A DNA stretch of 64,000 nucleotides, taken from NCBI GenBank assembly GCA_963813155.1, contig CAWEYG010000003.1, positions 704,001-768,000 of the forward strand. Reading direction: 5' to 3'. How positions within the stretch are numbered: position 1 is the first letter of the stretch; every line of letters starts with the position of its first letter. This stretch comes from an uncultured Acidobacteriota bacterium (GTDB taxonomy: Bacteria > Acidobacteriota > Thermoanaerobaculia > UBA5066 > DATFVB01). The position numbers were made by a program, and so were the translations under genes. The notes under the pieces were generated by a model. It made no database searches. It saw only the letters and a list, made by a program, of their open reading frames with translations, and had not been told where the DNA came from. Of this stretch, positions 10,405 through 40,546 are shown piece by piece.

Positions 10405-10412
10405 ATGACAGT

Positions 10413-10448
10413 GTGCGGTTTTGGGATTTTGGCGTCCCACAAGCGCAC
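10413..10448. promoter_or_regulatory. Candidate enhancer (UAS) for a sigma54 activator
   Basis: Dyad GTGCG-N4-TGGGA-N8-TCCCA-N4-CGCAC, about 75-110 bp upstream of the -24 element. Confidence 0.5.
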
Positions 10449-10482
10449 GTTCCCGGGGTCTCCTGCGTTCTCCCATCGCTGT

Positions 10483-10495
10483 CAACTCATTGATA
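10483..10495 (-). promoter_or_regulatory. IHF binding site
   Basis: The minus strand reads TATCAATGAGTTG, a perfect WATCAANNNNTTR, between the UAS and the -24/-12 element. Confidence 0.55.
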
Positions 10496-10523: not shown

Positions 10524-10538
10524 TGGCACGGACTTTGA
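10524..10538 (+). promoter_or_regulatory. sigma54 (-24/-12) promoter of the transporter operon
   Basis: TGGCACG-GACT-TTGA: perfect -24 box, -12 box TTGA instead of TTGC, 24 nt before the ATG at 10563. Confidence 0.55.
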
Positions 10539-10562
10539 GCTACAGGCTGCCCGAGAGAACGA

Positions 10563-22302: not shown

Positions 22303-24799
22303 ATGAGCGGGATCTTCCAGGACGTTCGGTATGCTTTGCGATCCCTTCGCAAAACGCCGGGTTTTACGGTGGTCGCCGTGTTCACCCTCGCGCTCGGCAT
22401 CGGCGCGAACACCGCGATCTTCTCGGTGGTCGACGCGGTTCTTCTTCGCCCGCTTCCGTTCCGCGCGCCCAACCGCCTCGTCATGGTCTGGGAACGGAGG
22501 CCGCAACGCGACCACGTGGTCGCGAGCTACCCGGATTTCCGCGACTGGCGAGACCGCAGCCGTTCGTTCGACGGCATGGCGGCGTTCTCGGCCTGGACGC
22601 ACAATCTCACCGGCGCAAGCTCTCCGGAGCGCGTCGAAAGCGCCGTCGTCTCGACGAACTTCTTCGACGTCCTCGGGGTCACGCCGAGCATCGGCCGAGC
22701 CTTCCGGCCGGAGGAGGAAACGAAAGGCCACGACGATGTCGTCGTGCTGGGCCACGCGTTCTTTCTGAGGCGATTCGGCGGCGATCGATCCGTCGTCGGA
22801 AAGAACATTCTGCTCGACGGAACACCCTTCCGGGTGATCGGCGTGGCGCCGACCGGAATTCGGCTCCCGTCGCTCTCGTCGAACACGGATCTGTTCGTTC
22901 CGGTCATCACCGAGCGCGCCGCGAACGAGACGGCGCCCGCCGGCGCGCCGCACGAGCATGACGGTCCGGTCGTCGCCGACCGGGCCGCCCACGGGTATTA
23001 CCGGGCGGTCGAGAACCGGCAGGGACATTACCTGAGCGTCGTCGCGCGTCTCAAGGGACGGGGTCTCGCTCGCCGCCGCGCAGGGCGATCTCTCCGCGGT
23101 CGCCCGCACGCTTCAGCGGGAGTACCCCGTTTCGAACTCGAACCACGCGATCGACGCCTTCCCGCTTTCGCGCGAGGTCGCCGGTCCCGCGCGCCCGGCT
23201 CTCCTCGCGCTTCTCGGCTCGGTTTTCGTCCTCCTCGCGATCGCGTCGGTCAACGTCGCGAACATGCTCCTTTCGCGAGCCACGGCGCGGTCCCACGAGA
23301 TCGCCGTCCGCACGGCCCTTGGCGCCGGCCGTGCTCGGCTGGTCCAGCAACTCCTGGTCGAGAGCCTCGTCCTGTCCCTGATCGGCGGCGCGCTGGGGGT
23401 CATCGCCGCGTCGACGGGTGTCGCGCTCGTCCGGAGATTCGGGCCCGCGGACATAGCCCGCCTCGACCAGGCGCGGGTGGATGGGGCCGTCCTCCTCTAT
23501 GCGTTCGCGATCTCGCTCGCGACCGGAGTTCTTTTCGGCCTCGCGCCGGCCGCGCACGCCTCCGTGAAGCGCCTGAGCGATGCCCTCAAGCAGGGCGACC
23601 GGCGCGTCGCGCGGGGGGAAGGGCGAGCGGGGCGCGTCCTCGTCGCGTCTGAATTCGCGCTGTCGGTGGTTCTCCTGCTCGGCGCCGGGCTCATGCTCAA
23701 GAGCTTCTGGCGCCTCGCCCACGTCGACCCCGGCTTCGCAACGGATAGGATCATGACCGCGGAGCTCGATTTTCCCGAAGCGAAGTACCCGCGGGGGCGC
23801 GACATTTCGGCCTTCGGCACGCGGCTGCTCGAGCGGCTGCGCGCCATGCCCGGCGTCGATCGGGCCGGCGCCGTTTCGAACCTGCCGTTCCGCGGCGATC
23901 GGCGAATGAACCTGTCTTTCGTCGTCCAGGGACGGCGATCGGATCCCGCCAGTCCGCTCATCGCCGTCTACTCGTCCGCGACACCCGGCTACTTCGAAAC
24001 GCTCGAGCTCCCTCTCGAGCGCGGACGCCCGTTCACCGACGGCGACACCCGCGAGGCGCCGAAAGTCGCAATCGTCAACCGGACCCTCGCGCACTCCATA
24101 TTCCCCGGACAGGATCCCGTCGGCCGGCGGATCTCCCTCGAGGACGAGCCCGGGCCGAACGACTGGGCGACGATCGTGGGAGTCGTCGGGGACGTCCGGA
24201 GCGATTCGCTCGCCTCGGCCGCCACGAACCAGATCTACATGCCCTTCGCTCAGAACGCGCAATCGGGCATGGCCGTCGTCGTGCGCGCGCGAGAGCCGAA
24301 GGCGCTTGCCGCCGCGATTCGTTCGGCCGTCTCGGAGATCGATCCGGACGAGCCCGTGTACGCCATCCTGCCGCTCGCCGACATCGTGGCGGAGACGACG
24401 GAGCAGCCCCGCTTTCGAGCGTTCCTCACCGCCGCGTTCGCCGCGCTCGCGCTGATTCTCGCGGCGATCGGAATCTACGGCGTGCTGTCGTATTCCGTCG
24501 CGCGGCGCACGCACGAGATCGGGATCCGGATCGCGCTCGGCGCCGCGCGGAGAGACGTGCTGCGGCTCGTCGTCGGAGGCGGGATGCTCCTCGCCGTGAT
24601 CGGCGTCGCGGTCGGTCTGATCGCCGGCGCGCTCGCTTCGCGAGCGCTTTCGGCGCTGCTCTACGGTGTTGCCGCCACCGACGTACCGACGTTTGCGGCC
24701 GTCGCCGGGATTCTCCTCGGCGTCGCGCTCGCGGCGTCCGTCGTGCCCGGGTGGCGGGCCTTGCGCGTCGACCCCATGGTCGCGCTGCGGGAAGAGTGA
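22303..24799 (+). CDS. ADOP-family duplicated ABC permease #5 (frameshift near 23058)
   Basis: DVRYALRSLRKTPGF start. The second piece carries HEIAVRTALGA, HEIGIRIALGA and VDPMVALREE. Confidence 0.88.
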
Positions 24800-24808: not shown

Positions 24809-27229
24809 ATGAACGGACTTCTCCAGGATCTTCGGTACGTTCTCCGCGGGTTTCGGAAGTCGCCCGGTTTCGCGGCGGTCGCCGTCGCGACGCTCGCGCT
24901 CGGGATCGGGGCCAACACGGCGATCTTCACCGTCGTCGACACGGTGCTGCTGCGGCCCCTGAGCTTTCCGGCTCCCGAGCGAATCGTCACGCTGTGGGAC
25001 CGGGATTCCGAGGGCAAGCCCGACAATGTCGGGTGGCCGACTTTCGTGGACTGGAAGCGCGAGACGCGCTCTTTCTCCGACATCGCCGTCCTCTCGTACT
25101 GGAGCCCGACGTTGACCGGTGGGCTCCGGGCCGAATCGCTGGAGGGCCTCCGCGTTACGGAAGGATTTTTCCGGACCCTCGGCGTCTCTCCCGCCCTCGG
25201 CCGAGACTTCCTCCCCGAAGAGGACCGCAAGGACCGAAACCACGTAGTCATTCTCGGAAACGGCCTTTTCGAGAGGCGATTCGGCGGCGACCGCTCGATC
25301 GTCGGGCGCGCGATCTCGCTGGGGGGAACCCCCTACACGGTCGTCGGTGTTCTGCCGAAGCAATTCGACTCGGTCTTCTCGGTCGATCGGCACGAAGACA
25401 CCCAGATCTGGTCCCCGCTCGGCTACGACGCGACGATCCCGTGGGCTTGCCGCGACTGCCGGCACCTCCGCGCCATCGGCCGCCTGAAACCGGGAGCGTC
25501 CCTTGCGGCCGCCAATCTCGATCTCAACCGGGTGGAAACGTCGCTGTTCCGCGCTTACCCGAAGGAATATGCGTCGCCGAAGACGTCGGTGATCCCGCTC
25601 GTCCAGCAGCTCTTCGGAAAGGTCCGCGTGTCCCTTCTCGCCATGCTGGCGGCCGTCGCGCTCGTGCTCGTGATGGCGTGCGCGAACGTCGCGAGCGTCC
25701 TCCTCGCCCGCGTCGGCGAGCGCCGCAAGGAGATCGCCCTGCGATTCGCCCTCGGCGCCAGCCACGGCCGCGTCGTCCGGCTCCTCCTGACGGAAAGCCT
25801 CCTTCTCTCCCTCTTCGGCGGGGCCCTCGGTCTCGCGATCGCGGCGGGGGCTTCCCGCGGCCTCGCCGCGGCCGCTCCGGTCGACCTGCCGAGGCTCTCC
25901 TCGATGGCAATCGACCTGCGCGTCTTCTTCGTCTGCCTGTTGACGTCGATCGCGACGGGCATCGCGTTCGGTCTCGGGCCCGCATTCGCGATGGGCCGTT
26001 TCGATTCCGCCGCGGCCCTGGCCGATTCCTCCGGAGGGACGGCGGGCCGGCAGCGAAGGCGTTTTCTGGCCGGCCTCGTCGTCGCCGACGTCGCGCTCGC
26101 GCTCGTTCTGCTCTCGGGAGCGGGGCTCCTCGTTCGAAGCGTTTCGCGCCTGTTCGGCGTCGAATCCGGATTCGATGCGAGCCGCGTGGCGAAACTCGAC
26201 GTGCATCTCTCCGGCGCCCGCTATCGGAAAGACGAAGCGCTGAACGCGTTCTACCGAAACGCGCTGGACCGGGTCCGTTCGCTCCCCGGCGTCGAGTCGG
26301 CCGCCGTCACGAGCCTGCTGCCGCTCGGGACGAACTTCGACGCCTACGGCGTCCACTCGGAAGACCACCCGAACCCGAATCCCGAGAACGATCCTTCGGC
26401 CGACCGATTCTCCGTGAGCCCCGATTACCTCAAGACGATGCAGATTCCCGTTCTTCGCGGGCGAGGACTCGCCGAGTCCGAAAGCACGCCCGTCGTCCTG
26501 ATCAACCGCGAGCTCGCGCGCGGGGTCTTCGGGACGGCGGATCCGATCGGAAAACGGATCCGGGTGGGGGGCACGGACGGTCCCTGGAGAACGATCGTCG
26601 GAATCGTCGGCGACGTCCGCCAGCGCGGCCTCGACGCCCCCCAGTCGTACCAGGTCTATCTCCCCGCAGAGCAGTTCATGGCGGACAACGACCGAACGAT
26701 CGTGATCCGGACTTCCCGCTCTTTGCCGGGCGCCGTCGCACGGACCGCGGCCGCCGCCGTCGCGGCGCTCGACCGCGACCAGGTCGTCGATCACGTCGGC
26801 ACGATGGAAGAAGTCGTCGCGGCATCCGCCGGCCGGAGGCGCTTCGCCGAAGTCGCCCTCGGAGCTTTCGCCCTGATGGCGATCCTCCTCGCCTCGATCG
26901 GAATCTACGGCGTCGTCGCGCGCGGCGTCGTCCAGCGCCGGCGGGAGTTCGGCATCCGGATGGCCCTCGGCGCGCCGCGAGCGTCCGTTCTGCGGCTCGT
27001 CGCGGCCGGGACATTCGGCTGGATCGCGGCGGGCCTCGCGGTTGGCGTCGCCGGGACCCTCGCGGCCACGCGGCTGCTCCAGAACGAGCTGTTCGCCGTG
27101 AGCCCGCGCGATCCGGCCACGCTCGCCGAAGTCGTCGCCCTGATGACGGCGGTCGGCCTCCTCGCCTGTCTCATCCCCGCCCGGCGCGCCATGCGGGTCG
27201 ACCCGATGACCGCCCTGCGGGAGGAATGA
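24809..27229 (+). CDS. ADOP-family duplicated ABC permease #6
   Basis: 806 aa with family motifs, periplasmic WACRDCRHL, VDPMTALREE. Confidence 0.92.
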   Translation: MNGLLQDLRYVLRGFRKSPGFAAVAVATLALGIGANTAIFTVVDTVLLRPLSFPAPERIVTLWDRDSEGKPDNVGWPTFVDWKRETRSFSDIAVLSYWSPTLTGGLRAESLEGLRVTEGFFRTLGVSPALGRDFLPEEDRKDRNHVVILGNGLFERRFGGDRSIVGRAISLGGTPYTVVGVLPKQFDSVFSVDRHEDTQIWSPLGYDATIPWACRDCRHLRAIGRLKPGASLAAANLDLNRVETSLFRAYPKEYASPKTSVIPLVQQLFGKVRVSLLAMLAAVALVLVMACANVASVLLARVGERRKEIALRFALGASHGRVVRLLLTESLLLSLFGGALGLAIAAGASRGLAAAAPVDLPRLSSMAIDLRVFFVCLLTSIATGIAFGLGPAFAMGRFDSAAALADSSGGTAGRQRRRFLAGLVVADVALALVLLSGAGLLVRSVSRLFGVESGFDASRVAKLDVHLSGARYRKDEALNAFYRNALDRVRSLPGVESAAVTSLLPLGTNFDAYGVHSEDHPNPNPENDPSADRFSVSPDYLKTMQIPVLRGRGLAESESTPVVLINRELARGVFGTADPIGKRIRVGGTDGPWRTIVGIVGDVRQRGLDAPQSYQVYLPAEQFMADNDRTIVIRTSRSLPGAVARTAAAAVAALDRDQVVDHVGTMEEVVAASAGRRRFAEVALGAFALMAILLASIGIYGVVARGVVQRRREFGIRMALGAPRASVLRLVAAGTFGWIAAGLAVGVAGTLAATRLLQNELFAVSPRDPATLAEVVALMTAVGLLACLIPARRAMRVDPMTALREE

Positions 27230-27238
27230 GGTGATTCG

Positions 27239-29680
27239 ATGAACGGATTTCTCCACGATCTCCGCTATGCGCTGCGCGGAATCCGGAAGTCGCCCGGGTT
27301 CACGGTCGTCGCCGTCGCGACCCTCGCGCTCGGCATCGGCGCGAATACCGCGATCTTCAGCGTCGTGCGGGCGGTGCTGCTGCGTCCCCTGCCTTTTCCC
27401 CGCGCCGACCGGCTCGTGGCCGTCGATCAGGTCGCCCGGGGCGGGCAGCACGAAGCGATGTCAGCGGCCGATTTCCTGGACGTGGCGGCGCAGACCCGCG
27501 ACACGGTGCGGCTCGCGGCCTCGAGGGAGCGGGAGCTCACGCTCTCGCTCGCCGGCAACCCGGAACGCGTCGGGGCAGCGGTCGTCACGCCGAATTACTT
27601 TTCCGTTCTCGGTCTCGAGCCGCGGCTGGGGCGCGGATTTCTCGAGAGCGGGGCGGGACAGAGGCGCGAAGTCGTCCTCAGCCACTCCCTCTGGGTGCGG
27701 CGATTCGGCTCGCGCCGCGACGCCGTCGGCGAGAACGTGGTGCTCGACGGCGAGCCGGCGAGCATCGTCGGCGTGCTCGGCCCGGGCGCCGACTATCCGG
27801 TCGACACCGAGCTGTGGGCCTCTCCCCGCGCCGGCTTCGCCGCCCCGGAGCATCCCCTCGAGCCCCAATCCGACCCGGCGCAGATGCGCGGGTCGCATTA
27901 CTTCGAGGGGGTCGGGAGGCTTCGCGACGGGATATCGCCGGAACGGGCGCGGGCCGATCTCGATGTCGCGTTCGACCGGGTCGTGAGCGCTCATCCCGAT
28001 TCCGACTTGAAAGACGCGCGCGCGGGAATCGAAGACCTCCACCAGCACGAGGTGAAGGGTTCCCGGGGTTCGCTCTACGCCCTTCTCGGCGCCGTCGGCC
28101 TCGTGCTCCTGATCGCCTGCGCGAACGTCGCGAACCTGCTTCTCGCGCGCGGCACGATTCGTTCGCACGAGATCGCGGTGCGCACGGCGCTCGGCGCCGG
28201 CCGCGCCGCGCTCGTGCGGCTCTTTCTGGCGGAGAGTTGCCTGACGGTGCTCGCCGCCGCCGCGCTCGGCGTCGGCGTCGCGCATCTCGGAACGGGCGCT
28301 CTCGCCGCCCTCCTCACCCGGGGGATCGTCGCCGCCGACACCGTGCGGATCGACGGATCCGTTCTCGCTTTCACCCTTGCGCTCTCGATCGCGGCCGCGC
28401 TCCTGTTCGGCCTCTGGCCCGCGATTCGCTCGTCCGGGCGGGATCCCCAGCTCGTGCTCCAGCGGGGGACGCGGACTTCCTCCGGAGAGCACCGGCTCAC
28501 CCATGGCGCCCTCGTGCTCGTCGAATCCGGCCTTTCGCTGCTCCTTCTCGTCGGAGCCGGACTCCTGCTGAAAAGCCTCTCCCGGATCCTCGCCCAGGAC
28601 GAGGGCTTTCGGGCGGACCGCATCCTCACGCTTGCGACCTCGCTGCCGCCGATCCGATACGCCGATCCGGAAGCCCGCGTTCGTTTCGTCGACCGCGTGC
28701 TGGAGAACGCGCGATCGCTCCCGGGCGCCCGCAGCGCGGCGGTCGTGTCGCGCCTTCCCCTCAATTCCGGCAACAGCACCCGAAGCTTCGTGATCGAAGG
28801 CCACACGTATTCGGCATTTCAGGATTCCGAGCCGCTGAGCCCCGACTACCTGGTCGCCAGCCCGGGCTACTTCGAGTCCCTCGGCATCCCCGTTCTGGCC
28901 GGGCGCTCCTTCACCGACCGCGATCGCGCGAATGCGCCCCCCGTCGCCGTCATCAGCCGGGCGATGGCGCAGGCCTTCTGGCCGGGCGAGAGCCCGATCG
29001 GCAAGCGCATCAAGAACGGGGGGATCTCGGATCCCATACCCTGGGTTACGATCGTGGGCGTCGTCGGCGACGTCCGCCAGCACGACCTCTCCCGGAACGG
29101 CGCTCCGACGCTGTACGTTCCCTACGATCAGGACCCCTGGACGTTTCTCACGGTCGTCGTGCGGACCTCCGGGGCGCCCGAGGCCCTTTCCGGCGCCGCC
29201 ATCGCCGCGATCCGCCGCGCCGATCCCGATCAGGCGGTGTTCAACGTCCGGCCCATGGAAGACGTCGTGGCGCGTTCGATCGGACCGCGCCGCGCGAACA
29301 CCCTCCTCCTCGGGCTCTTCGCGGCGCTCGCGCTCCTCCTCGCGGCCGTCGGCGTCTTCAGCGTGATGTCCTTCGGCGTCGCGCAGCGAACGCGCGAGAT
29401 CGGCATCCGGGTCGCTTTCGGCGCGCGTCCGGCCAACATCCTCCGGCTGATCCTCGGCGACGGCCTTCGCTGGGCCCTTCTCGGCGAAGCGAGCGGGCTC
29501 GTTGCCGTTCTCGCCCTGCGCCGAACCCTGGAGCACTTCGTCTTCGGCGTCCGCGCGACCGATATCGCGACGCTGGCCGGAGCCGCCGGATTGCTTCTGC
29601 TCGTCGCGACGGCGGCCTGCGCCGTTCCCGCCCTTCGCGCCCTTCGGGTCGATCCGCTGACGGCGCTCCGGTACGAGTGA
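27239..29680 (+). CDS. ADOP-family duplicated ABC permease #7
   Basis: 813 aa, LIACANVANLLLAR, QRTREIGIRVAFGA, VDPLTALRYE. Confidence 0.92.
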   Translation: MNGFLHDLRYALRGIRKSPGFTVVAVATLALGIGANTAIFSVVRAVLLRPLPFPRADRLVAVDQVARGGQHEAMSAADFLDVAAQTRDTVRLAASRERELTLSLAGNPERVGAAVVTPNYFSVLGLEPRLGRGFLESGAGQRREVVLSHSLWVRRFGSRRDAVGENVVLDGEPASIVGVLGPGADYPVDTELWASPRAGFAAPEHPLEPQSDPAQMRGSHYFEGVGRLRDGISPERARADLDVAFDRVVSAHPDSDLKDARAGIEDLHQHEVKGSRGSLYALLGAVGLVLLIACANVANLLLARGTIRSHEIAVRTALGAGRAALVRLFLAESCLTVLAAAALGVGVAHLGTGALAALLTRGIVAADTVRIDGSVLAFTLALSIAAALLFGLWPAIRSSGRDPQLVLQRGTRTSSGEHRLTHGALVLVESGLSLLLLVGAGLLLKSLSRILAQDEGFRADRILTLATSLPPIRYADPEARVRFVDRVLENARSLPGARSAAVVSRLPLNSGNSTRSFVIEGHTYSAFQDSEPLSPDYLVASPGYFESLGIPVLAGRSFTDRDRANAPPVAVISRAMAQAFWPGESPIGKRIKNGGISDPIPWVTIVGVVGDVRQHDLSRNGAPTLYVPYDQDPWTFLTVVVRTSGAPEALSGAAIAAIRRADPDQAVFNVRPMEDVVARSIGPRRANTLLLGLFAALALLLAAVGVFSVMSFGVAQRTREIGIRVAFGARPANILRLILGDGLRWALLGEASGLVAVLALRRTLEHFVFGVRATDIATLAGAAGLLLLVATAACAVPALRALRVDPLTALRYE

Positions 29681-29690: not shown

Positions 29691-32099
29691 ATGAACGGAT
29701 TTCTCCAGGACATTCGCTACGCTCTGAGGAGCTTCCGAAGGAACCCGGCGTTCGCGGCGACGGCCATCCTCACGCTCGCGCTCGGAATCGGGGCGACGAC
29801 GGCGGTCTTCAGCTTCGTGAACGGGATTCTGCTTCGCGCCCTTCCCGCGCCGGAGCCTTCCCGCATCGTTTTCATCACTCGCTCCGGGGACGTCTCCATC
29901 CCGGACGGTCGGGACTGGCGCGCGTCCGCGCCGGCCCTCGGTTCGGTGGGACTCTTCCTGCGCGACTGGGACCTCGACCTCACGGGCCTTGGCGAACCCG
30001 AACGCCTGCGTTCCGCGGTCGTCGAGGCGCAGTACTTTCGCGTTCTTGGCATCGCGCCGCTCGTGGGACGAACGATCGAGCCGGCGGACGACCAGTCGGG
30101 GGGACGCCGGGTCGCGGTCATCCGGGAAGCCTTCTGGAACCGGCGCTTCCGCCGCGACCCCGCGATCGTCGGGAAAGTCATATCCCTGAGCGATCACCCC
30201 ACGACGATCATCGGCGTCATGCCGGACGCCTTCGACGTTCTCGGGGACGGCACCGACGTCTGGGTGCCGGCGGCCGTGGAAACGCCGTGGGCGCTCGGCG
30301 AACGAGGCACCAACAACTTCGACGCGATCGGGCGCCTCGCTCCCGGCGCGAGTCTCGCGACCGCAAAAGCACAGCTTCGCTCCGTTTGCGAGCGGCTCGA
30401 GCGGCAGTTCCCCGCGACGAACCAGGGAAAGGTCGTCGAACCGATTCTGCTGCTGGACTTCCTCACCGGCGCCGTCCGGCGCGGGATTCTCGTGCTGTTC
30501 GCCGCCGTCGCCTTCGTCATGCTGATCGGATGCGTGAACCTCGCGAGCCTCCTGCTTGCGCGGCTCGCTTCGAGGGGACCGGAGCTGGCGGTGCGCCGGG
30601 CGCTCGGCGCGGGCAGTGCCAGGATCTTCCGGCAACTGATCGTCGAGGCGGAAGTCCTCAGTCTCGGCGGCGCGCTGCTCGGAGTCCCGATCGCCGCCGC
30701 CGGAACGCGCATGCTCCTGCGCCTGGCGCCCGCGAGCCTTCCCCGCTCCGGCGGGGTGGCCCTCGACCTGCCCGTCCTCGCGTTCGATTTCGGAGCGGCC
30801 CTGCTCGCGGGACTCGCCTGCGCCGCGATCCCGGTCTGGCGGTCGCGGCGAGCGGATCTCTTCGCGCCGGCCGGCGGCGGACGACAGGCGGGCTCGCTGC
30901 GCCGGAGCGGGTCGCTCGGATGGATCATCGCCTCGGAAATCGCGCTCGCCGTTCCCCTCGTCGTCGGGGCGCAGCTGCTGACGCGGAGTTTCCTGGGATT
31001 GAATCGGGTTCCTCTCGGTTTCGAGCCGCGAGGGGCCCTGACCGCGGAGCTCGTCCTCCCCGAGAGCCGCTACTCCGACCGCGCCGCGCAGACCCGGGCG
31101 TTCCGGCGAATCGTCGGGGAGTTGTCCGCCACGCCGGGGATCGAATCCGCGGCGTCGGTGATCGGGGCTCCCCTCCGTCCGTCCGGGCGCGGAATCGGGT
31201 CCTCGATCGACGTGGCCGGCGCCGCGCCTGACCGCTCAGGACGGGCCCCGAGCGCGCGAGTCCGGCCCGTTCTGGGAGACTATTTTCGCGCCCTCCGCAT
31301 TCCTGTCCTTCGGGGACGGGTTCTCCGAGACGCCGACGACGAGAACCACGAGCCGGTCGCGGTCGTCAATCTCGCCCTTGCCCGGCGGTACTGGCCCGGG
31401 CAGGAGGCGGTCGGGAAGACGATTCGCCTCTCGGGCTGGGACGATCCCCGCTCGTTCCGGGTCGTCGGCCTCGTGGCCGACACGAAGCCCTCGGATCTCA
31501 CGGAAGAAGACACGCGGGCGGTCTACATCCCGTACGCCCAGCGAGCGCCGGCGTGGCAGCGATTCGGCACGATCGTGGTCCGCGCGGCGCGCGGCGCAAC
31601 GAATCTGCTGCCCCGAATTCGCGAGGCGATCTGGAGAGTCGACCCCTCCCTGACGATCTCGGAGATCGAGCCCCTGGACCTTCAGTTCCGCCGGAGCCTC
31701 GCGCCCTCGCGCTTTCTCGCCCAGGTGCTCGGAGGCTTCGCGGCCGCGGCCCTTCTCCTCGCCGCACAGGGCCTTTACGGCGTCCTCGCCTACTCCGTCG
31801 TTCTCCGGCGCAAGGAGATCGGCGTGCGGATCGCGCTGGGAGCGACGCGCGGACGCGTCATCTCCCACATCGCGCGCCGGGCCGCCCTTCCGGTCGCCGC
31901 CGGACTCGGCGCGGGCGTCGCAGCCGCGTTCCTCGCTCGCCGGGTTCTGGGGAACCTCCTGTTCGGGGTCTCGAGCTCCGACCCCGCGACGTACGCCCTG
32001 GCGGCCGCCGCCCTTCTCCTCCTCGCCGCGACGGCAAGCTCGCTGCCCGCCCTTCGAGCGTCGAGAATCGATCCGATGACGGCGCTGCGGGAAGACTGA
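29691..32099 (+). CDS. ADOP-family duplicated ABC permease #8
   Basis: 802 aa, CVNLASLLLAR, RRKEIGVRIALGA, IDPMTALRED. Confidence 0.92.
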   Translation: MNGFLQDIRYALRSFRRNPAFAATAILTLALGIGATTAVFSFVNGILLRALPAPEPSRIVFITRSGDVSIPDGRDWRASAPALGSVGLFLRDWDLDLTGLGEPERLRSAVVEAQYFRVLGIAPLVGRTIEPADDQSGGRRVAVIREAFWNRRFRRDPAIVGKVISLSDHPTTIIGVMPDAFDVLGDGTDVWVPAAVETPWALGERGTNNFDAIGRLAPGASLATAKAQLRSVCERLERQFPATNQGKVVEPILLLDFLTGAVRRGILVLFAAVAFVMLIGCVNLASLLLARLASRGPELAVRRALGAGSARIFRQLIVEAEVLSLGGALLGVPIAAAGTRMLLRLAPASLPRSGGVALDLPVLAFDFGAALLAGLACAAIPVWRSRRADLFAPAGGGRQAGSLRRSGSLGWIIASEIALAVPLVVGAQLLTRSFLGLNRVPLGFEPRGALTAELVLPESRYSDRAAQTRAFRRIVGELSATPGIESAASVIGAPLRPSGRGIGSSIDVAGAAPDRSGRAPSARVRPVLGDYFRALRIPVLRGRVLRDADDENHEPVAVVNLALARRYWPGQEAVGKTIRLSGWDDPRSFRVVGLVADTKPSDLTEEDTRAVYIPYAQRAPAWQRFGTIVVRAARGATNLLPRIREAIWRVDPSLTISEIEPLDLQFRRSLAPSRFLAQVLGGFAAAALLLAAQGLYGVLAYSVVLRRKEIGVRIALGATRGRVISHIARRAALPVAAGLGAGVAAAFLARRVLGNLLFGVSSSDPATYALAAAALLLLAATASSLPALRASRIDPMTALRED

Positions 32100-32124: not shown

Positions 32125-34581
32125 ATGAACGGACTCGGCCAGGACGTTCGCTTCGCGCTGCGGAGCTTCCGCAAGTCGCCCGGCTTCACGGCGGTCGCGG
32201 TTGTGACGCTCGCGCTCGGCATCGGCGCGAATTCCGCCATCTTCTCGGTCGTCGATGCCGTCCTGCTCCGGCCGCTGCCGTTCCGCGATCCGGGGCGCCT
32301 CGTTCAGATCTTCGAGCCCCTCTCCGAAGGCCAGGGAGCGAGAAACAGCCAGTCGTACCTCGACGTCCAGGACTTTCGGTCAATGAACCGGGTCTTCACC
32401 GGCATCGCCACCTACCGTTCGGAAAGCTTCACTCTCACGGGCGAGGGCGAACCGCTGCACGCTCGAGGAACGGTCGCTTCTTCGAATCTCATGGAGGTTC
32501 TCGGGATTGCGCCCAAGCTCGGCCGTTCCTTCACGCCGGCCGACGACCGGCCCGGGCCGCGGACGGTTCTCCTCGCCGACGGCCTCTGGCGCCGCCGTTT
32601 CGCGGGCGACCCGGGAATCGTCGGACGCACGATCCTGATCGACGGCCGCGCGTTCCGGGTCGCCGGAGTGATGCCGGCCGGGTTCCAGTTTCCGATCGAT
32701 CCCCGTCCCGGCGAGCTCTGGGCGAACGCGGGACTCGACGCCGAACGGCCGGCCGACGATCCGAACGGAAAGTCGCAGGCCGAACAGCGCGGGTGGCGCT
32801 CTCTTCGAACAGTCGCCCGGCTGAAGCCCGGCGTGACGATCGGCCGGGCGACGGCCGAGATGAACGCGATCGCCCGAACGCTCGCCGCGCTCCATCCGGA
32901 CGAAGACGCGCGCCGGAGCGCCGAGGTCCTGGCGCTGCACGAATCGCTGGTTCGCAACCTCGAGCCCGCTCTGCTCGTGCTCTTCGGCGCCGTGGGTTGC
33001 GTGCTCCTCATCGCGTGCGCGAACATCGCGAATCTTCTGCTCGCTCGCGCGGCATCCCGCGAAAAGGAGCTCGCCGTTCGCGCGGCCATCGGAGCGAGCC
33101 GGGCCCGGATGATCCGCCAGCTTCTGACGGAGAGCGTTCTCCTCTCGCTGTTCGGCGGGGCCGCGGGGGTCCTGCTGGCGTACTGGGGAATCGCGCTCGT
33201 CGTCGCCCGCGGCCCGCGGGACCTGCCGCGGCTTTCCCAGATCCACCTCGATGGCTGGGTTCTCCTCTTCACGGCGGCGCTCTCGCTCGTCACCGGCGTC
33301 GTCTTCGGGTTGGCCCCCGCGTTGCGCTCGTCGCCTTCGCGGCTGGCCGAATCGTTGAAAGACGGTGGCCGGGGGGCGAGCGCCGGTCTCCGACAAAATC
33401 GATTTCGAAGCCTGCTCGTGATCGCCGAAGTCACGCTCGCGCTGATTCTCCTCGCGGGGGCCGGACTGCTGCTCCAGAGCTTCGTTCGTCTCCAGCGCGT
33501 CGACCCCGGTTTCCGGCCCGATCACGTCCTTTCGCTGCGCTTCAGCCTCCCGGACCGGTCCTATCCGACTTCGGCCCGGATCGCGGCATTCGTCGCGGGC
33601 ACGGTCGAACGGTGCGCGGCCGTGCCCGGCGTCGTTGCCGCGGCCGCCGTCGGTCCCCTTCCGCTCGGAGGCGGCAACATGGGAACGAGTTTCGAGATCG
33701 AAGGACATCCGACCCCGAAGGCCGAACAGCCGGGCACCGACGTCCGGATCGCGACGCCCGGATACTTCCGAACGATGGGTATTACTCTGTCTTCCGGGCG
33801 CGATTTCCAGCCCGAAGACCGGATCGACGCTCCGCCGGTCGCCATCATCAATCAGACTCTCGCGCGAAAGTTCTTTCCCGGCGTCGACCCGATCGGGCGG
33901 CGGATCCGGCCCGGACTGAGCGCCCTTCCCGGGGATCCTCCCTTCCGGCGAATCGTCGGAGTCGTGGGAGACGTCAAGCACGTCGAGCTCGCGGAGGTCG
34001 ACGGCCCGGAGACGTACCTGCCGGAGGGGCAGGTGCCGTTCAGCACGATGACGGTCGTGGCGCGCACGGCGGGAAGGCCGCTCGACGCCGAGGCCTCGCT
34101 CGCGGCCGCCGTTCACGCCGGCGATCCGACGGTGCCCGTTTTCGACGTTCGGACGATCGACGAGTACATGTCGCAGGCCGTCGCCCGGCCCCGCTTCAAC
34201 GCGGTCCTCCTCGGCCTGTTCGCCGCGCTCGCGCTCGTCCTGACGGCGGTCGGCCTGTACGGAGTCCTGTCCTATTCCGTTTCCCAGCGCACGCACGAGA
34301 TCGGAATCCGGCGCGCGCTCGGCGCCAGCGATTCCGCCGTCTACCGCCTCGTCGTCGGCCATGGCATGCGCCTCGCGGCGCTCGGTCTCGTCCTCGGAAT
34401 CGCCGGGGCTCTCGTGGCGACGCGACTCCTCTCGACGCTGCTGTTCCGGATGAAGCCGTTCGACTTTCCGACCTTCGCCGCCGTGACGCTCGGTCTCGCG
34501 CTCGTGTCCCTCGCGGCGTCGTGGCTGCCGGCCCGGCGGGCCGCGGGGATCGAGCCGACGGTGGCGCTGCGCGACGAGTGA
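32125..34581 (+). CDS. ADOP-family duplicated ABC permease #9
   Basis: 818 aa, CANIANLLLAR, QRTHEIGIRRALGA, IEPTVALRDE. Confidence 0.92.
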   Translation: MNGLGQDVRFALRSFRKSPGFTAVAVVTLALGIGANSAIFSVVDAVLLRPLPFRDPGRLVQIFEPLSEGQGARNSQSYLDVQDFRSMNRVFTGIATYRSESFTLTGEGEPLHARGTVASSNLMEVLGIAPKLGRSFTPADDRPGPRTVLLADGLWRRRFAGDPGIVGRTILIDGRAFRVAGVMPAGFQFPIDPRPGELWANAGLDAERPADDPNGKSQAEQRGWRSLRTVARLKPGVTIGRATAEMNAIARTLAALHPDEDARRSAEVLALHESLVRNLEPALLVLFGAVGCVLLIACANIANLLLARAASREKELAVRAAIGASRARMIRQLLTESVLLSLFGGAAGVLLAYWGIALVVARGPRDLPRLSQIHLDGWVLLFTAALSLVTGVVFGLAPALRSSPSRLAESLKDGGRGASAGLRQNRFRSLLVIAEVTLALILLAGAGLLLQSFVRLQRVDPGFRPDHVLSLRFSLPDRSYPTSARIAAFVAGTVERCAAVPGVVAAAAVGPLPLGGGNMGTSFEIEGHPTPKAEQPGTDVRIATPGYFRTMGITLSSGRDFQPEDRIDAPPVAIINQTLARKFFPGVDPIGRRIRPGLSALPGDPPFRRIVGVVGDVKHVELAEVDGPETYLPEGQVPFSTMTVVARTAGRPLDAEASLAAAVHAGDPTVPVFDVRTIDEYMSQAVARPRFNAVLLGLFAALALVLTAVGLYGVLSYSVSQRTHEIGIRRALGASDSAVYRLVVGHGMRLAALGLVLGIAGALVATRLLSTLLFRMKPFDFPTFAAVTLGLALVSLAASWLPARRAAGIEPTVALRDE

Positions 34582-34623: not shown

Positions 34624-37067
34624 ATGACCGGAATCCTTCAGGATCTTCGTTTTGCGGCCCGGTTGCTGCGCCGCTCGCCCGGGTTCGCGTTCGGATCGAT
34701 CGTCGTTCTCGCTCTCGGCATCGCGGCCAACGTGACTCTCTTCGGCGTCGTCGACACGGTTCTTCTCAAGCCGCTGCCCTTTGACCACCCCGATCGCCTG
34801 TATGCGATCGTCACTTCGGACGTGAAGCAGCATTTTCGCGCCGCGGCCTCGCCTCCCGACTTCCTCGACTACCGCCGGTCGGTTCGCTCCTTGAAAGACG
34901 TCGCGGCTTCCCAGCCCTGGAACCCGAACGTCACCGGCGAAGCGTCTCCCGAAAGACTGAACGCGCTGCTCGTCTCGGCGAACTTCTTTTCGACCCTCGG
35001 CGTTTCCGCCGCGCGGGGCCGAACGTTTCTTCCCGCCGAGGAAGTCGACGGCCGTGAACGGGTCGCGGTTCTCAGCGACGCTTTCTGGAGACGAAGGTTC
35101 GGCTCGGACCCATCGCGGGTCGGCAAACCGATCCGGCTGAACGGCGAAGAGTACATCGTCGTCGGCGTCATGCCCCCCGGATTCCGGTGGGGCCGCGCGT
35201 ACGGCGGGAGCGGGGCCGCGGACCTCTGGGCGCCGTTCGCGCTGACGCCCTCGCGGATTGCCCCCGACCAGCGCGGCAACGAATACCTCGACCTGATCGG
35301 CCGGCTTCGGCCGGGCGTTTCCGTCCGAGCCGCTCAGGGCGAGATCGACCAGCTCATGGAGGGATTCCGCCGAAGCTACCCGGAGAACTTTCCCCGAGGA
35401 GGGGGGCTCACCACGACGCTCGTTCCCCTCCGGGACGACCTGGTCGAAAACGTGCGCTCGCCTCTCTGGGTGCTCGTCGGTTCGGTCGGGTTCCTTCTGG
35501 CGATCGCGTGCACGAACGTGGCGGGCCTTCTTCTCGCCCGGGCCGCGGCGCGGCGGGGCGAAATCGCGATTCGGGCTTCGCTCGGCGCCACCCGGCAGCG
35601 CCTGCTGCGCCAGCTGCTCGCGGAGAGCGCCCTGCTGGCGTTTGTTGCCGGGGCCCTCGGAGCGTTTCTGGCGGCGGTCGCGTTGGGCGTCGTCCGGCGC
35701 GCGGGTTTCGAGACCTTTCCAGGACTGGAGAGAGCGAGATTCGACGGCGCCGCCGCGGTTTTCTCCGTCGGAGTCTCGGCGCTGACGGCCGTGCTTTTCG
35801 GTCTTCTCCCGGCTCTGGGGGACGACGCGTGGGAACCTCAGGGAAGAGATCGACGCGGATCGGCAGGCCTCCGGTGGAAACCGGGGCCGGCTGCGGCGGT
35901 TTCTCGTGGCCTCGCAGATGGCGTTCGCATCGCTGCTTCTGGTCGGCGCGGGTCTCCTCGTCTCGAGCCTTTCCCGGCTGCTCCAGCGTCAATCCGGGGT
36001 TCGACCCCAACGGCGTCGTCGCCGGCGAGATCTCGCTCCCCCCCTCGCGATACCCGGACCGGGCGTCCCGCGCGGCATTCGCGGAGGCTGTCCTCGCGCG
36101 CCTGCGCTCCGAGCCGGGAATTCGGGCCGCCGGCGCGGCCGAGATTCTTCCGCTCGGGGGTGAGATGAACAGCTCGACGTTCGACGTCGAGAATCGGCCT
36201 GCCGAGCCGGGAGGAACGAAGCCCCACGCCGAGAGCTGGCGAGCCTCGGTCGGCTATTTCGAAACGATGCGGATCCCGCTCTTTCGGGGGCGTCTCTTCG
36301 ATGCGACCGACCGACCCGGATCGGTGCCGGTCGCGATCGTCGACGAAGCGCTTGCGAAGAAATACTTCGGCGGGTTCGGCGCGCTCGGCAGGAGAATCGA
36401 TTTCGAGGGCGACCCGGGCGCGCCGCGATGGCGCGTCATCGTGGGAGTCGTCGGGACGATCCGCGCCCGATCGCTCGACGACGAGCCGCGATCCGCGTTC
36501 TATGTTCCTTTCGCGCAAAGGCCGCCCGGAATGATGGCGCTCGTCGCGAGGACGGGAGGCGATCCGAATCTCGCGGCCCAGGGGCTGCGATCCGCGGTCG
36601 CGGCCGTCGACCGCGACCAGCCGGTTGCCGACGTCGTGCCGCTCTCGGAGGTCCTGTCGGCGTCGGTGTCCCGCCGGCGGCTCGCGGCGGTCGCTCTCTC
36701 GGCCTTCGCCTCGTCGGCGCTCGTTCTCGCGGGCATCGGTCTGTACGGCGTCCTGGCTTACTCCGTCGCCCAGCGGCGCCGCGAGATCGGCATCCGAATG
36801 GCCCTCGGCGCCCGCCCCGGATCGGTCCTGCGCCTCGTCCTGGGCGAGAGCTCGAAGATGATCGCCCTCGGCATCGGGTCGGGCCTCGCGGGCGCGGCCC
36901 TGGCGACGCGATGGCTGACCGGCCTTCTTTACGGCGTCGCGCCGCTCGATCCCGCCACTTTCGCCGGCACGGCAGCCGTGCTCGCCTGCGTCGGTCTCCT
37001 CGCGAGCGGCCTCCCCGCCCGAAGAGCCGCGAGAATCGACCCGATGGAAGCCCTGCGATCCGAATGA
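34624..37067 (+). CDS. ADOP-family duplicated ABC permease #10 (frameshifts near 35815 and 35985)
   Basis: DLRFAARLLRRSPGF start, CTNVAGLLLAR. The final piece runs VNPGFDP...QRRREIGIRMALGA...IDPMEALRSE. Confidence 0.88.
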
Positions 37068-37110: not shown

Positions 37111-37776
37111 ATGATCCAGCTTCGCAACGTCGAAAAGTCGTTCCCCGCGGGAGGGGGCCGCACGTTCGTTCTGCGGCAGATCGAGCTGGGCGTGGAGGAA
37201 GGCGAGTTCGTCTCGATCATGGGCCCGTCCGGATCCGGAAAGACGACGCTCCTCTCGATTCTCGGCATGCTCGACGCGGACTGGAGCGGCGAGTACGAAT
37301 TCCTCGGCCAGTCCGTCCACCGGATGAAGCCGAAAGAGCGCGCGGAGCTCAACAAGAAGAACATCGGGTTCGTCTTTCAGCAGTACCACCTCCTCGACAA
37401 CCTGACGGTCCGCGAAAATCTCGACGTTCCCCTGTCGTACCGAAACGTCAAATCGTCCGAACGAGCGGCGCTCGTCGCGGACACGCTCGACCGCTTCCGC
37501 ATCGTCGGAAAAAAGGATCTTTTCCCCTCCCAGCTCTCCGGCGGGCAGCAGCAGCTCGTGGGCGTCGCGCGCGCGCTCATCGCGAAACCGAAGCTCATCC
37601 TCGCCGACGAACCGACCGGGAACCTCCACTCCGACCAGGGGCGGGAGATCATGGAGCTGTTTCGCGAATTGAACGCCTCCGGCACGACGATCATCCAGGT
37701 GACCCACTCCGACACGAACGCGGGGTACGGAAACCGGGTCGTCCGCCTCCACGACGGGTGGATCCAACGCGATTGA
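37111..37776 (+). CDS. ABC transporter ATP-binding protein (MacB/LolD-type) #2
   Basis: GPSGSGKTT, GFVFQQYHL, LSGGQQQLVGVARAL, LADEPTGNL, VTHS. SD AAGGAG upstream. Confidence 0.95.
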   Translation: MIQLRNVEKSFPAGGGRTFVLRQIELGVEEGEFVSIMGPSGSGKTTLLSILGMLDADWSGEYEFLGQSVHRMKPKERAELNKKNIGFVFQQYHLLDNLTVRENLDVPLSYRNVKSSERAALVADTLDRFRIVGKKDLFPSQLSGGQQQLVGVARALIAKPKLILADEPTGNLHSDQGREIMELFRELNASGTTIIQVTHSDTNAGYGNRVVRLHDGWIQRD

Positions 37777-37809
37777 CGCGAGCTCTCAAACGCGGAATGC
37801 TCGCGTAGG

Positions 37810-39180
37810 ATGCCGACGACCGGAGAAACCGCGCCCCGCCTGCTCGTGGCCGACGACCAGCCGGCGGTCCTCGAGGCGATCCGACTTCTCGTCAAGCCGG
37901 AGGGCTTTCTCGTGGAAACGGCGGGCTCGCCCGCGGCGGCCCTGGATGCCGCCCGCCACCGGGAGTTCGACGCCGTCCTGATCGACCTCAACTATGCGCG
38001 CGACACGACTTCGGGGCGGGAGGGGCTCGATCTCCTGACCCGGCTTCTCGAGACCGACGAGACGCTTCCCGTGATCGTGATGACCGCCTGGGGCTCGATC
38101 GACCTCGCCGTCGAGGCCGTGCGCCGCGGTGCCCGGGATTTCGTCCAGAAGCCGTGGGACAACGCGCGCCTTGTCGCGACGCTTCGCACCCAGGTCGAGC
38201 TCGGGGCCGCGTTGCGGCGCGGGAGGCGGCTCGAGGCCGAGAACCGTCTTCTGCGGGGCGCCGGCGCGCCGCCGATCGTCGCTCAATCCGCCGCGATGCA
38301 GCCGATCCTGCAGATGGTCGCGCGGGTCGGGCCCACGGAAGCAAATGTCCTCATCACCGGGGAAAGCGGAACGGGAAAGGGACTCATCGCCCAGGCGCTC
38401 CACGCCGCGTCCCGGCGCGCCGCAGCCCCGATGGTCACGATCAACATGGGCGGGCTGCCGGAAGGCGTTTTCGAGAGCGAGCTGTTCGGGCACGTCAAAG
38501 GGGCGTTCACCGACGCGAAAGCCGACCGAATCGGGCGATTCGAGCTCGCCCGCGGCGGAACTCTGTTCCAGGACGAAATCGCGAACCTGACGCTCGCGCA
38601 GCAGGCGCGTCTCCTCCGCGTGATCGAAACCGGCGAGTTCGAGCCCGTGGGATCCTCCCGGACGCGCCGCGCCGACGTGCGAATCCTGTCCGCGACGAAC
38701 GCCGACCTGCGGCAGGAAGTCGCGGCGGGAAAGTTTCGCCAGGACCTGCTGTTCCGCCTCAATACCGTCGAGATCTCGATTCCGCCGCTCCGCGAGCGCC
38801 CGGACGACATCGCCGGCCTCGCGACGCACTTCCTCGGGCTGCACACGGTCCGCCACCGCAAAAAGGCCAACGAACTGGATCCGGCGGCGCTCGACGCGCT
38901 GCGGCGGTATCCCTGGCCCGGAAACGTGCGAGAGCTCGAGCACGTGATCGAGCGCGCAGTCCTGATGTCGGAAGGAGAGCGAATCCGCATTTCCGACCTG
39001 GGGCTCGCCTCCGGGCGCGAGACGGACACCCGCCTCGAGGAAATGGGGCTGGAAGAAATGGAAGCACTGCTGATCCGAAAGGCTCTCGCGCGCCACGAAG
39101 GCAACGTGAGCAAAGCGGCCGACGCGCTCGGCCTCTCGCGAAGCGCGCTGTACCGGCGGCTCCAGCGGCACGGAATGTGA
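37810..39180 (+). CDS. sigma54-dependent response regulator (NtrC family: REC-AAA+-HTH)
   Basis: LLVADD..DLNY receiver, GESGTGKG, ESELFGH..GAFTDA, FRQDLLFRLN, WPGNVREL, Fis-type HTH LGLSRSALYRRL. Confidence 0.95.
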   Translation: MPTTGETAPRLLVADDQPAVLEAIRLLVKPEGFLVETAGSPAAALDAARHREFDAVLIDLNYARDTTSGREGLDLLTRLLETDETLPVIVMTAWGSIDLAVEAVRRGARDFVQKPWDNARLVATLRTQVELGAALRRGRRLEAENRLLRGAGAPPIVAQSAAMQPILQMVARVGPTEANVLITGESGTGKGLIAQALHAASRRAAAPMVTINMGGLPEGVFESELFGHVKGAFTDAKADRIGRFELARGGTLFQDEIANLTLAQQARLLRVIETGEFEPVGSSRTRRADVRILSATNADLRQEVAAGKFRQDLLFRLNTVEISIPPLRERPDDIAGLATHFLGLHTVRHRKKANELDPAALDALRRYPWPGNVRELEHVIERAVLMSEGERIRISDLGLASGRETDTRLEEMGLEEMEALLIRKALARHEGNVSKAADALGLSRSALYRRLQRHGM

Positions 39181-39190
39181 GTCGCAGGCG

Positions 39191-40546
39191 ATGCTGAAGC
39201 GGCCGCGACGCAACCACGAGGGACGGATCTTCGGCCTCGCGCTCGCCGCCGGGCTCCCCGCGATCGCCGGCGCCGGAATCCTTCTGTGGACCGCTCACGC
39301 GGGCCGGGGCCTCGCGTGGACGGTCCTCGCGCTCCTCGCGGGCTCGACCGCGGCGTTCGCGTTCGCGATTCGGAGCCGCGTCGTCCGGACCCTCCAGACG
39401 GTCGCGAACCTGCTCGGCGCGATCCGAGAAGACGACTACTCGATACGGGGAACGATCACGCCGGGCCAGGACGCCTTGAGCCTCGTCTTCTGGGAGATCA
39501 ACGAGCTCGCGGAAACCCTTCGGGGCCGGAGGCTGGGCGAGCTCGAATCCGCCGCCCTCTTGCGCGCGGTCGTCGCGAAGATCGACACGGCGATTTTCAC
39601 GTTCGATTTCGACGCGAACCTGCAATTCGTGAACCGCTCCGCGGAATCGCTCCTCGGAACGCCGGCGGACAGGCTTGTCGGGAAGCGGGCCGCGGACCTC
39701 GGCCTCGCCGAATGGCTCGAGGGCCCCGAGGCGAGGACCGTCGAGCACGTCCTTTCGGTCCCCGGCCGCTGGTCCGTGCGCCGCTCGGCCTTTCGCGAAG
39801 AGGGCCGCCCGCACCACCTCGTCGTCGTCACCGATCTCCGCCAGGCGCTGCGCGAGGAGGAGCGGCAGGCCTGGCAGCGGATCATCCGGGTCCTCGGGCA
39901 CGAGCTGAACAACTCGCTCGCGCCGATCCGCTCGATCGCAGAGAGCCTCCTCTCGGCTTCCGCGAGAACGCCGCGGTCCGCCGACTGGGATGCCGACCTG
40001 GGCCGCGGCCTCGAGGTCATCGGCTCCCGCGCGGCCGCATTGACGCGATTCCTCGAGGGATACCGGCAGCTCGCCCGGCTCCCCGAGCCGCAGCGCCGCC
40101 GGGTCGATCTCGCCGGCCTTCTCCGGCGCGTCGCCGCTCTCGAGAGCCGCGTCCCGGTTCGCGTCGCCGGAGGGCCCGACGTCGTGATCGAGGCGGACGG
40201 AGATCAGCTCGAGCAACTCTTCATCAACCTCCTACGGAACGCCGCCGATGCGGCCCTCGAGACCGGAGGATCGGTAGAGGTCGGGTGGGACCTCGGCCCG
40301 GGCGGGGTCGAAGCGAGCGTCATCGACGACGGACCCGGCATCGCCAGCACGAACAACCTCTTCGTGCCGTTCTACACGACGAAACCGGGAGGCTCGGGGA
40401 TCGGCCTGCTTCTCAGCCGGCAGATCGCCGAGGCGCACGGCGGCTCCCTGACGCTGTCCAACCGCCGCGATGCGACCGGCTGCGTCGCGCGCCTGACGCT
40501 GCCGATCGGGCCCTGGACCCGCACCGGCGACGCCGCCTTTCAGTAG
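39191..40546 (+). CDS. Sensor histidine kinase (2 TM, PAS-like, HisKA, HATPase)
   Basis: Two closely spaced TMs, FVNRSAESLLG PAS-like segment, H-box HELNNSLAPI, NLLRNA, DDGPG, PFYTTKPGGSGIGL. Confidence 0.93.
   Translation: MLKRPRRNHEGRIFGLALAAGLPAIAGAGILLWTAHAGRGLAWTVLALLAGSTAAFAFAIRSRVVRTLQTVANLLGAIREDDYSIRGTITPGQDALSLVFWEINELAETLRGRRLGELESAALLRAVVAKIDTAIFTFDFDANLQFVNRSAESLLGTPADRLVGKRAADLGLAEWLEGPEARTVEHVLSVPGRWSVRRSAFREEGRPHHLVVVTDLRQALREEERQAWQRIIRVLGHELNNSLAPIRSIAESLLSASARTPRSADWDADLGRGLEVIGSRAAALTRFLEGYRQLARLPEPQRRRVDLAGLLRRVAALESRVPVRVAGGPDVVIEADGDQLEQLFINLLRNAADAALETGGSVEVGWDLGPGGVEASVIDDGPGIASTNNLFVPFYTTKPGGSGIGLLLSRQIAEAHGGSLTLSNRRDATGCVARLTLPIGPWTRTGDAAFQ

Follow-up and report, generated by a model that had tools for sequence, protein, structure and literature searches.

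A Vfm-like sensing module with ten ADOP permeases and a predicted sigma54-type output in an Acidobacteriota genome

Intramembrane-sensing histidine kinases have two membrane helices with fewer than 25 residues between them and no extracytoplasmic domain (PMC4388633); to perceive their signal, such kinases depend on an accessory membrane protein. The kinase VfmI of the Dickeya quorum-sensing system Vfm also has two helices and a very short loop, and a 2022 paper proposes VfmG, the permease of the VfmF/VfmG ABC transporter, as its co-sensor by analogy with Bce, calling for experiments; the idea that a diderm combines Bce-like logic and a sigma54-type output has therefore already been published as a proposal (PMC9306890). 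In the same paper, the signal-specificity groups of Dickeya track the polymorphism of the vfmG permease and not that of vfmI, and a non-ribosomal peptide is the predicted signal. The regulator VfmH contains the GAFTDA motif (PMC10714721); it binds the promoters of vfmE and vfmA and turns on the AraC gene vfmE, and is reported not to regulate vfmFGHIJ directly (PMC7912708). Here we analyse an operon encoding a VfmI-like kinase, a VfmH-like regulator and ten ADOP permeases in a 64,000-nucleotide stretch of contig CAWEYG010000003.1 from an uncultured Acidobacteriota bacterium (this whole stretch is called the window below).

The operon consists of 15 plus-strand genes at 10563-40546 with intergenic gaps of 7-43 bases, in the order adaptor, ATP-binding cassette (ABC) ATPase 1, ten ADOP permeases, ATPase 2, sigma54-type response regulator and histidine kinase (Table 1). 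The regulator and kinase open reading frames (ORFs) are real and share one orientation. No sigma70-type promoter was found in a search of 34500-41000, and a weak terminator-like hairpin at 37072-37087 was no better than chance. On balance we lean, by a little, towards the view that the ABC permeases encoded alongside pass a signal to the kinase, which has no periplasmic domain, and that the regulator activates the promoter of its own operon and an AraC gene elsewhere in the genome. The original prediction, in which the permeases act as sensors for the kinase by Bce-like logic and the regulator re-activates the operon, is partly supported overall: comparative sequence data point to the kinase-transporter link and the promoter layout, and the genetics of the homologous Vfm system would, by analogy, put specificity in the permease.

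The residues LLW-TAHAGRG-LAW, where two membrane helices had been proposed to be joined, are residues 31-43 of the kinase. Hydropathy analysis gave two 19-residue windows with 10 residues between them and no further window above 1.6. In the AlphaFold2 model (mean pLDDT, the predicted local distance difference test, 81; pTM, the predicted template modelling score, 0.46) a helix at 9-34, a 4-residue turn and a helix at 39-79 form a hairpin with pLDDT of 90-95. Loop length across orthologues was measured as an anchor-to-anchor span (R12-A72), which is 61 residues in 78 of the 81 orthologues and 53, 62 and 63 in the remaining three; the short loop is therefore a family trait. The proposed topology is thereby confirmed, and the window kinase has the layout of the intramembrane-sensing kinases: two helices, a loop well below 25 residues and no extracytoplasmic domain. 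The lack of a sensor domain holds for the periplasmic side only, because a HAMP-like helix pair (residues ~63-130) and a cytoplasmic PAS fold, both previously overlooked, lie between the membrane and a complete kinase core with the invariant His237.

The closest named homologue of the kinase is from Thermoanaerobaculia (80%). Compared with VfmI of D. dadantii 3937, it showed 36% identity over 430 aa (E 6e-92) and the same domain order. In a kinase-core tree of 62 rows, 55 kinases including VfmI fall on one side of a 98/95 branch and 7 other kinases on the opposite side; the outgroup is long-branched, and one of the 55 (Parabacteroides) has no transporter within 14 kb. A plasmid search yielded a Rahnella cluster encoding a MATE protein, a hydrolase, an AraC protein, an adaptor, an ATPase, an 809-aa permease, a sigma54 regulator, a kinase, a phosphopantetheinyl transferase (PPTase) and adenylation enzymes. 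We call it vfm-like on account of this gene content and of its kinase, which shares 51% identity with a cluster of Dickeya kinases that bear the name VfmI. The shared genes stand in the same order as in the window, with identities of 32% for the adaptor, 64% for the ATPase, 30-31% for the permease (over >800 aa), 47% for the regulator and 34% for the kinase; the likeness of the transporter and regulator to Vfm is drawn from these Rahnella sequences and not from Dickeya VfmG and VfmH. The window thus holds both a VfmI-type kinase and a GAFTDA-containing VfmH-type regulator. With 13 genes of the Rahnella cluster as queries, this genome (90.8% complete) gave only weak AraC and acyl-CoA dehydrogenase matches, and the signal synthesis of a whole Vfm quorum-sensing system was not recovered. 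These comparisons suggest homology between the window module and the sensing module of Dickeya Vfm, which is the closest known system. The vfm-like cluster is carried on Rahnella megaplasmids, and Sodalis, Pseudomonas and Serratia have close kinase relatives (the set comprises the Rahnella plasmid L136, L161 and P0123-P0131); the reach of Vfm-type signalling may be much wider than Dickeya.

Among 61 related genomes the kinase (E below 1e-90) is present in 30, all of which have ADOP; three have ADOP only and 28 have neither. Among 151 genomes of the phylum, the kinase was found in 56, ADOP in 64, the adaptor in 61 and neither kinase nor ADOP in 87, and the kinase is accompanied by ADOP in 56 of 56 genomes and by the adaptor in 55. 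A kinase match was also obtained in 50 of 301 genomes of the gammaproteobacterial order to which a Colwellia genome belongs. At 40 gammaproteobacterial loci from the upper part of the match list, the regulator, ATPase and permease always lie beside the kinase and the adaptor does so in 39; locus L162 has kinase, ATPase and permease and no adjacent adaptor. Module homologues are found in Gemmatimonadota and Verrucomicrobiota loci as well, and two genomes with lone kinases (G212 and G109) have adaptor and ADOP genes elsewhere. Related genomes share kinship and are not independent, so these counts are patterns and not statistics. The unpublished genome G008 enters as one genome per tally, one of the 28 training promoters described below and one row of the tree, and no conclusion rests on it.

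On the output side, the window has a sigma54 promoter before the adaptor gene, two palindromic upstream sites and, between them and the promoter, an IHF-like site called with the IHF consensus. The relatives have a -24 box at a near-fixed distance 5' of the adaptor gene and a palindrome pair upstream of it with the consensus TGTCCG-N4-CGGACA, about 21 bases apart; an IHF-like site separates enhancer and promoter in 15 of 38 module promoters. The -12 boxes are loose among these 38 (TCGC in 20, TTGC in 6, TTGT in 5), and that of the window, being TTGA, is non-canonical. A paired matrix (a model of the 16-base motif) trained on 28 promoters other than that of the window placed the window pair at -112 and -90, identically to genome G002, and its 13.7 bits were reached by none of 100 local shuffles. 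A strict enhancer-plus-promoter pattern gave 38 matches in 28 of the 61 genomes versus 2 for the reversed control; many of the matches are training promoters, four are without a clear target and two lie outside the examined set. In four genomes with no close kinase orthologue (G013, G041, G049, G059) the match stands in front of an adaptor gene that belongs to a paralogous module whose permease is a split pair; in three others (G030, G038, G048) it precedes an ADOP gene away from the operon. Clear sigma54 sites precede the adaptor gene at 10 of 11 kinase-positive loci, as against none before four and a weak one before the fifth of five adaptor copies in kinase-less genomes. Promoter and enhancer appear to follow the module across paralogous subfamilies and to be missing or weak where the kinase/regulator pair has been lost. 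In the paralogous module at L275, L276, L277, L279 and L281 two half-size permeases replace the duplicated one, and L275-L277 have the same enhancer and promoter.

The best genome-wide score of the paired matrix, 32.3 (shuffled maxima 22.9 and 26.3), precedes an AraC gene at C1:453524-454468, whose promoter lies at C1:454552. Both same-genus genomes (G001 and G002) retain the element; in G003 it stands in front of another AraC gene, and a weaker form of it lies in front of the Rahnella cluster's AraC gene. The AraC gene with its element (C1:453524-454660; L208, L215) is the strongest case of its type in the genome. The N-terminal part of its protein is longer than in the Rahnella counterpart.

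Several observations weigh against the view that permeases feed the kinase and that the regulator drives the operon; those on the input side are taken up in this paragraph and those on the output side further below. Co-sensing by VfmG is, even in Dickeya, a proposal (PMC9306890). The cytoplasmic PAS fold is an alternative input through which the kinase might sense a cytoplasmic ligand or the metabolic state, the hairpin being a mere anchor and the transporter an output or an upstream ligand mover. The fold was found in the window kinase, in VfmI and in all 8 proteins scanned (Pfam matches are weak, below the cut-off for the window kinase and above it for several orthologues), and the structures that match it best are those of WalK, LOV-kinase chimeras and further PAS kinases; yet it is small (~82 aa), its conservation from module to module is 26%, and it has one invariant residue and no conserved Cys. 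Likewise, the hairpin is the least conserved part of the kinase (19% mean identity over 36 modules), but its span is fixed as described above. Sensing through the PAS fold is in our estimation unlikely, as signal specificity in Dickeya does not track vfmI variation (PMC9306890), and a freely sensing kinase need not stay with one transporter type, as this one does in 56 of 56 genomes.

The co-evolution of kinase and permease, proposed earlier as a check, gave no specific signal by distance-matrix coupling: over 36 single-permease modules, which make a weak test, the kinase membrane helices had a partial r of -0.01 with the permease membrane parts and of 0.30 with the adaptor. For the HAMP segment the corresponding values were 0.20 and 0.37. 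Such values would be expected if the kinase reads the membrane state or else the adaptor, through the adaptor's membrane anchor or its conserved N-terminus in the cytoplasm, and so reports the overall load on the pump rather than the identity of the engaged permease. It would also fit that a single adaptor serves ten permeases and accompanies the kinase in 55 of 56 genomes, and that 102 of 108 module adaptors begin with Met-Asp (a count biased by a start choice that favoured Met-Asp), followed by a basic stretch and an anchor helix (window 10563-10600), a segment that may form a conserved cytoplasmic tail. Correlated distances among related modules carry little weight, though, locus L162 lacks an adjacent adaptor, and Vfm specificity maps to the permease (PMC9306890), with which a relay via the adaptor is also compatible; we consider readout of the adaptor distinctly improbable.

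A further point against the permeases as sensors comes from the eight ADOP-positive, kinase-negative genomes of the phylum, five of which were examined. Four of these, G164 (complete), G086, G092 and G090, keep the transporter and adaptor without an orthologous kinase/regulator pair, and G206 retains a truncated pair; one adaptor copy of G164 sits behind a PadR-like gene. Since some genomes keep the transporter and have no such kinase, the permeases are not solely sensors, and to this extent the original prediction goes too far, while the constant company of kinase and permease (56 of 56 genomes, 40 of 40 gammaproteobacterial loci) agrees with it. The kinase seems to need the transporter and the transporter not the kinase, a pattern that would fit a sensing transporter with a job of its own.

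Concerning the output, the window promoter scored 24.2 genome-wide, sixth of 576 candidates and inside the shuffled range, and failed the strict pattern; support for this site is therefore positional. The paired matrix did not score six gammaproteobacterial test promoters (p 0.13-0.81), and the element before the AraC gene is absent from three of three AraC orthologues of the sister genus. A direct autoregulatory loop is not a feature of Vfm, because VfmH is reported not to regulate vfmFGHIJ (PMC7912708), and no sigma54 was recovered in the VfmH pull-down (PMC10714721). Together with the non-canonical -12 box, a Walker B motif, LFQDE, that recurs in only 5 of 76 regulator orthologues and the many other sigma54 activators in this genome, these reports could mean that the pair does not drive the 10524 promoter through sigma54, another activator doing so or the regulator acting otherwise. 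We regard this as very unlikely, given that promoter and enhancer follow the module and vanish with the pair, that most of the 76 regulators keep the recognition stretch SRSALYRR of the helix-turn-helix, matching the conservation of the palindrome, and that GAFTDA (in 65 of the 76, with Asp at its Asp position in 75) is functional in NorR, where the G266D variant supports open-complex formation (PMC2941729), and is listed among compatible motifs (PMC4641369). The gene rpoN is present in the genome. The earlier claim of self-activation keeps its layout, a conserved enhancer arrangement that tracks the kinase/regulator pair, and is weakened by the -12 box and by the report of no such loop in Vfm.

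Ten ADOP (TIGR03434) permease genes occupy 12551-37067, six of them whole and four split by frameshifts. The six intact ORFs all exceed the curated TIGR03434 cut-off of 622.3, with 825-984 bits; the scoring covers these six. Short-read contigs of run X1, at least 99% alike here and possibly from the source sample, have one base fewer at all six permease break points, and contigs from two other studies have one base fewer at three of them. The nearby lon gene, broken in the window, is intact in the variant copy that contig C22 carries. Because these contigs are without the extra base and lon is whole on C22, all ten permeases are probably intact and the frameshifts probably assembly errors. The one-base differences in the short-read contigs led us to reject the idea that the four split genes are pseudogenes. 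Window positions 4508-11221 and contig C22 are 97.6% identical variants, and all seven indels between them are an extra G or C in the window, so that other genes of this assembly may carry single-base insertion errors.

Each ADOP permease has eight hydrophobic windows, two MacB_PCD domains and two FtsX domains. Among the six intact paralogues the periplasmic domains are 33-34% identical versus 44-46% in the two main membrane blocks, and several window permeases have orthologues in the sister genus at 63-80% identity. The paralogues therefore look like old, maintained lineages, as distinct specificities would predict; any exporter family would look alike. Five further ADOP genes lie outside the operon (C2:353264, C4:8892, C5:194209, C5:265263, C5:269517) with no ATPase seen nearby, and probably borrow the ATPases and adaptor of the operon. 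The D-loop Asp is replaced by His or Gln in 19 of 19 ATPase 2 orthologues and is canonical in 83 of 83 for ATPase 1; ATPase 2 may be a hydrolysis-poor or regulatory subunit paired with ATPase 1.

Table 1. Features of the operon and its promoter region (window coordinates)
Feature	Position	Strand	Remarks
Upstream activator site 1	10412..10427		degenerate TGTCCG-N4-CGGACA; 112 bases upstream of the -24 box; predicted regulator site
Upstream activator site 2	10434..10449		22 bases after site 1, nearly its inverted copy
IHF-like site	10483..10495	-	between enhancer and promoter
sigma54 -24/-12 promoter	10524..10539	+	TGGCAC-N5-TTGA
Periplasmic adaptor (HlyD/MFP type)	10563..11810	+	415 aa
ABC ATPase 1	11822..12538	+	canonical motifs, D-loop GNLD
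ADOP permease 1	12551..15017	+	frameshift near 14534, probably assembly error
ADOP permease 2	15027..17438	+	
ADOP permease 3	17448..19859	+	
ADOP permease 4	19870..22295	+	frameshifted near 21009 and near 21325, probably by assembly errors
ADOP permease 5	22303..24799	+	frameshift near 23053, probably assembly error
ADOP permease 6	24809..27229	+	
ADOP permease 7	27239..29680	+	
ADOP permease 8	29691..32099	+	
ADOP permease 9	32125..34581	+	
ADOP permease 10	34624..37067	+	frameshifted near 35815 and near 35987, probably by assembly errors
ABC ATPase 2	37111..37776	+	altered D-loop GNLH; Leu replacing Arg after signature motif
VfmH-like sigma54 response regulator	37810..39180	+	456 aa; REC (Asp59), sigma54 AAA+ with GAFTDA (codons 38500-38517), Fis-type HTH (HTH_8)
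VfmI-like histidine kinase	39191..40546	+	451 aa; two membrane helices, short loop, HAMP-like, PAS, DHp (His237), ATPase domain (HATPase_c)
Kinase membrane hairpin	39215..39376	+	residues 9-62; loop ~ residues 34-41
Kinase cytoplasmic PAS fold	39590..39835	+	residues 134-215

The surroundings of the operon were also inspected. A cardiolipin-synthase-like phospholipase D gene at 40540-41895 converges on the kinase gene, and their stop codons overlap. The operon has no TolC gene, and OEP-family genes are located elsewhere in the genome. The sequencing dataset that best matches the window is a soil metagenome, and no RNA dataset is among the matches listed. Around the gammaproteobacterial modules, 68 of 117 flanking ORFs were scanned and no common family was found, only scattered peptidases, one PPTase-AraC pair and one LodA-type oxidase, so these neighbours provide no shared substrate clue. 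In two near-identical Pseudoalteromonas loci (L138:86-3675 and L165:14926-18527) a LodA/GoxA-type oxidase pair is divergent from the module and could be its target.

From these data we propose the following course of events. An extracellular small molecule, probably a peptide from other organisms, would engage the divergent periplasmic domains of a permease, and an ATP-driven change of shape would be passed to the hairpin or stalk of the kinase, with HAMP and PAS as relays; we think this reasonably probable. The kinase would then phosphorylate Asp59 of the regulator, which would bind the paired palindromes and open the sigma54 promoter to yield more transporter, regulator and kinase, a step that we consider very probable. 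The regulator would probably also activate the AraC gene on contig C1, as VfmH does with vfmE. The permeases also act as transporters in their own right. A peptide is suggested as the ligand by analogy: the Vfm signal is predicted to be non-ribosomal, there is a below-cut-off resemblance to the darobactin exporter, and counterparts of the synthesis genes were not found.

More speculatively, and with considerable doubt on our side, the ADOP permeases could be interchangeable receptors of one widespread Vfm-type kinase, forming a chemoreceptor-like array of ten to fifteen, without a Vfm-type signal synthase, that detects and clears the peptide signals or antibiotics of other soil microbes; the altered ATPase 2 may mark the signalling complexes. 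Two questions meet here, the role of the many ADOP permeases of Acidobacteriota and the identity of the Vfm receptor, and a large, unexplained transporter family would receive a first testable job. If many permeases do feed one kinase, ABC permeases would constitute a receptor family in diderm bacteria. A review describes Vfm as 'not widespread' outside Dickeya (PMC7912708), in contrast to the sensing-half homologues in 56 of 151 phylum genomes and 50 of 301 genomes of the gammaproteobacterial order. This wide spread, the ten probably intact permeases, the conserved palindrome pair and its recurrence before an AraC gene are new, whereas the Bce-like co-sensor idea was already known. For VfmH-type regulators, the palindrome pair offers a concrete site at which binding is predicted, and the single-permease versions in culturable non-pathogens, such as the Edaphobacter, Tunturiibacter, Colwellia and Pseudoalteromonas modules (L007, L009, L016, L138), make the co-sensor idea easy to test.

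Compared with known systems, the module differs from Bce in several respects. The Bce regulator BceR is OmpR-type, whereas that of the window is of the REC-AAA+-HTH_8 type with a predicted sigma54 output. BceB has ten helices and one large outside domain, as opposed to eight hydrophobic windows and two MacB-like domains in the window ADOPs, and the window module has an adaptor, unlike Bce. BceS has just a 60-residue HAMP-like linker (bioRxiv 2020.02.28.969956), to which the window kinase adds a PAS fold. Signalling in Bce depends on hydrolysis of ATP by the transporter (flux sensing). Membership in Bce was rejected on three of these grounds: the permease topology, the PAS fold beyond the HAMP-like linker and the non-OmpR regulator. 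As in Bce, a two-helix kinase without an outside domain is encoded with a transporter bearing MacB-like outside domains and a regulator that drives, here by prediction, the transporter promoter (PMC11009047). The likeness seems to be one of analogy and not of membership; the Bce-like model first put forward for this locus therefore keeps its kinase topology and its transporter link, while Vfm, in a diderm, is the closer model, and a PAS fold is absent from BceS.

A ten-paralogue ADOP cluster has been described in Psychroflexus torquis (PMC3914696). Our search of the ADOP literature returned no stated function or kinase link for this family, and none of the literature found connects ADOP, the window module and Vfm, most subscription papers being out of reach. 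Within this genome, the five ADOP genes outside the operon each adjoin a PadR gene, and those of the operon are tied instead to a VfmI-type kinase. The adaptor and ATPases of the window also match the models of DarC and DarD from the darobactin exporter DarBCD, all below the cut-offs, and DarB is a permease of the duplicated type; unlike with DarBCD, neither a precursor gene nor a modifying gene was seen in the window operon. From Vfm the window module differs in having ten permeases and two ATPases where Vfm has one of each, and in its predicted direct autoregulation, which is reported absent in Dickeya. It shares with Vfm full-length homology of the kinase, the short loop, the GAFTDA-containing regulator, a co-encoded ABC permease proposed as a co-sensor and, by prediction, the AraC second tier.

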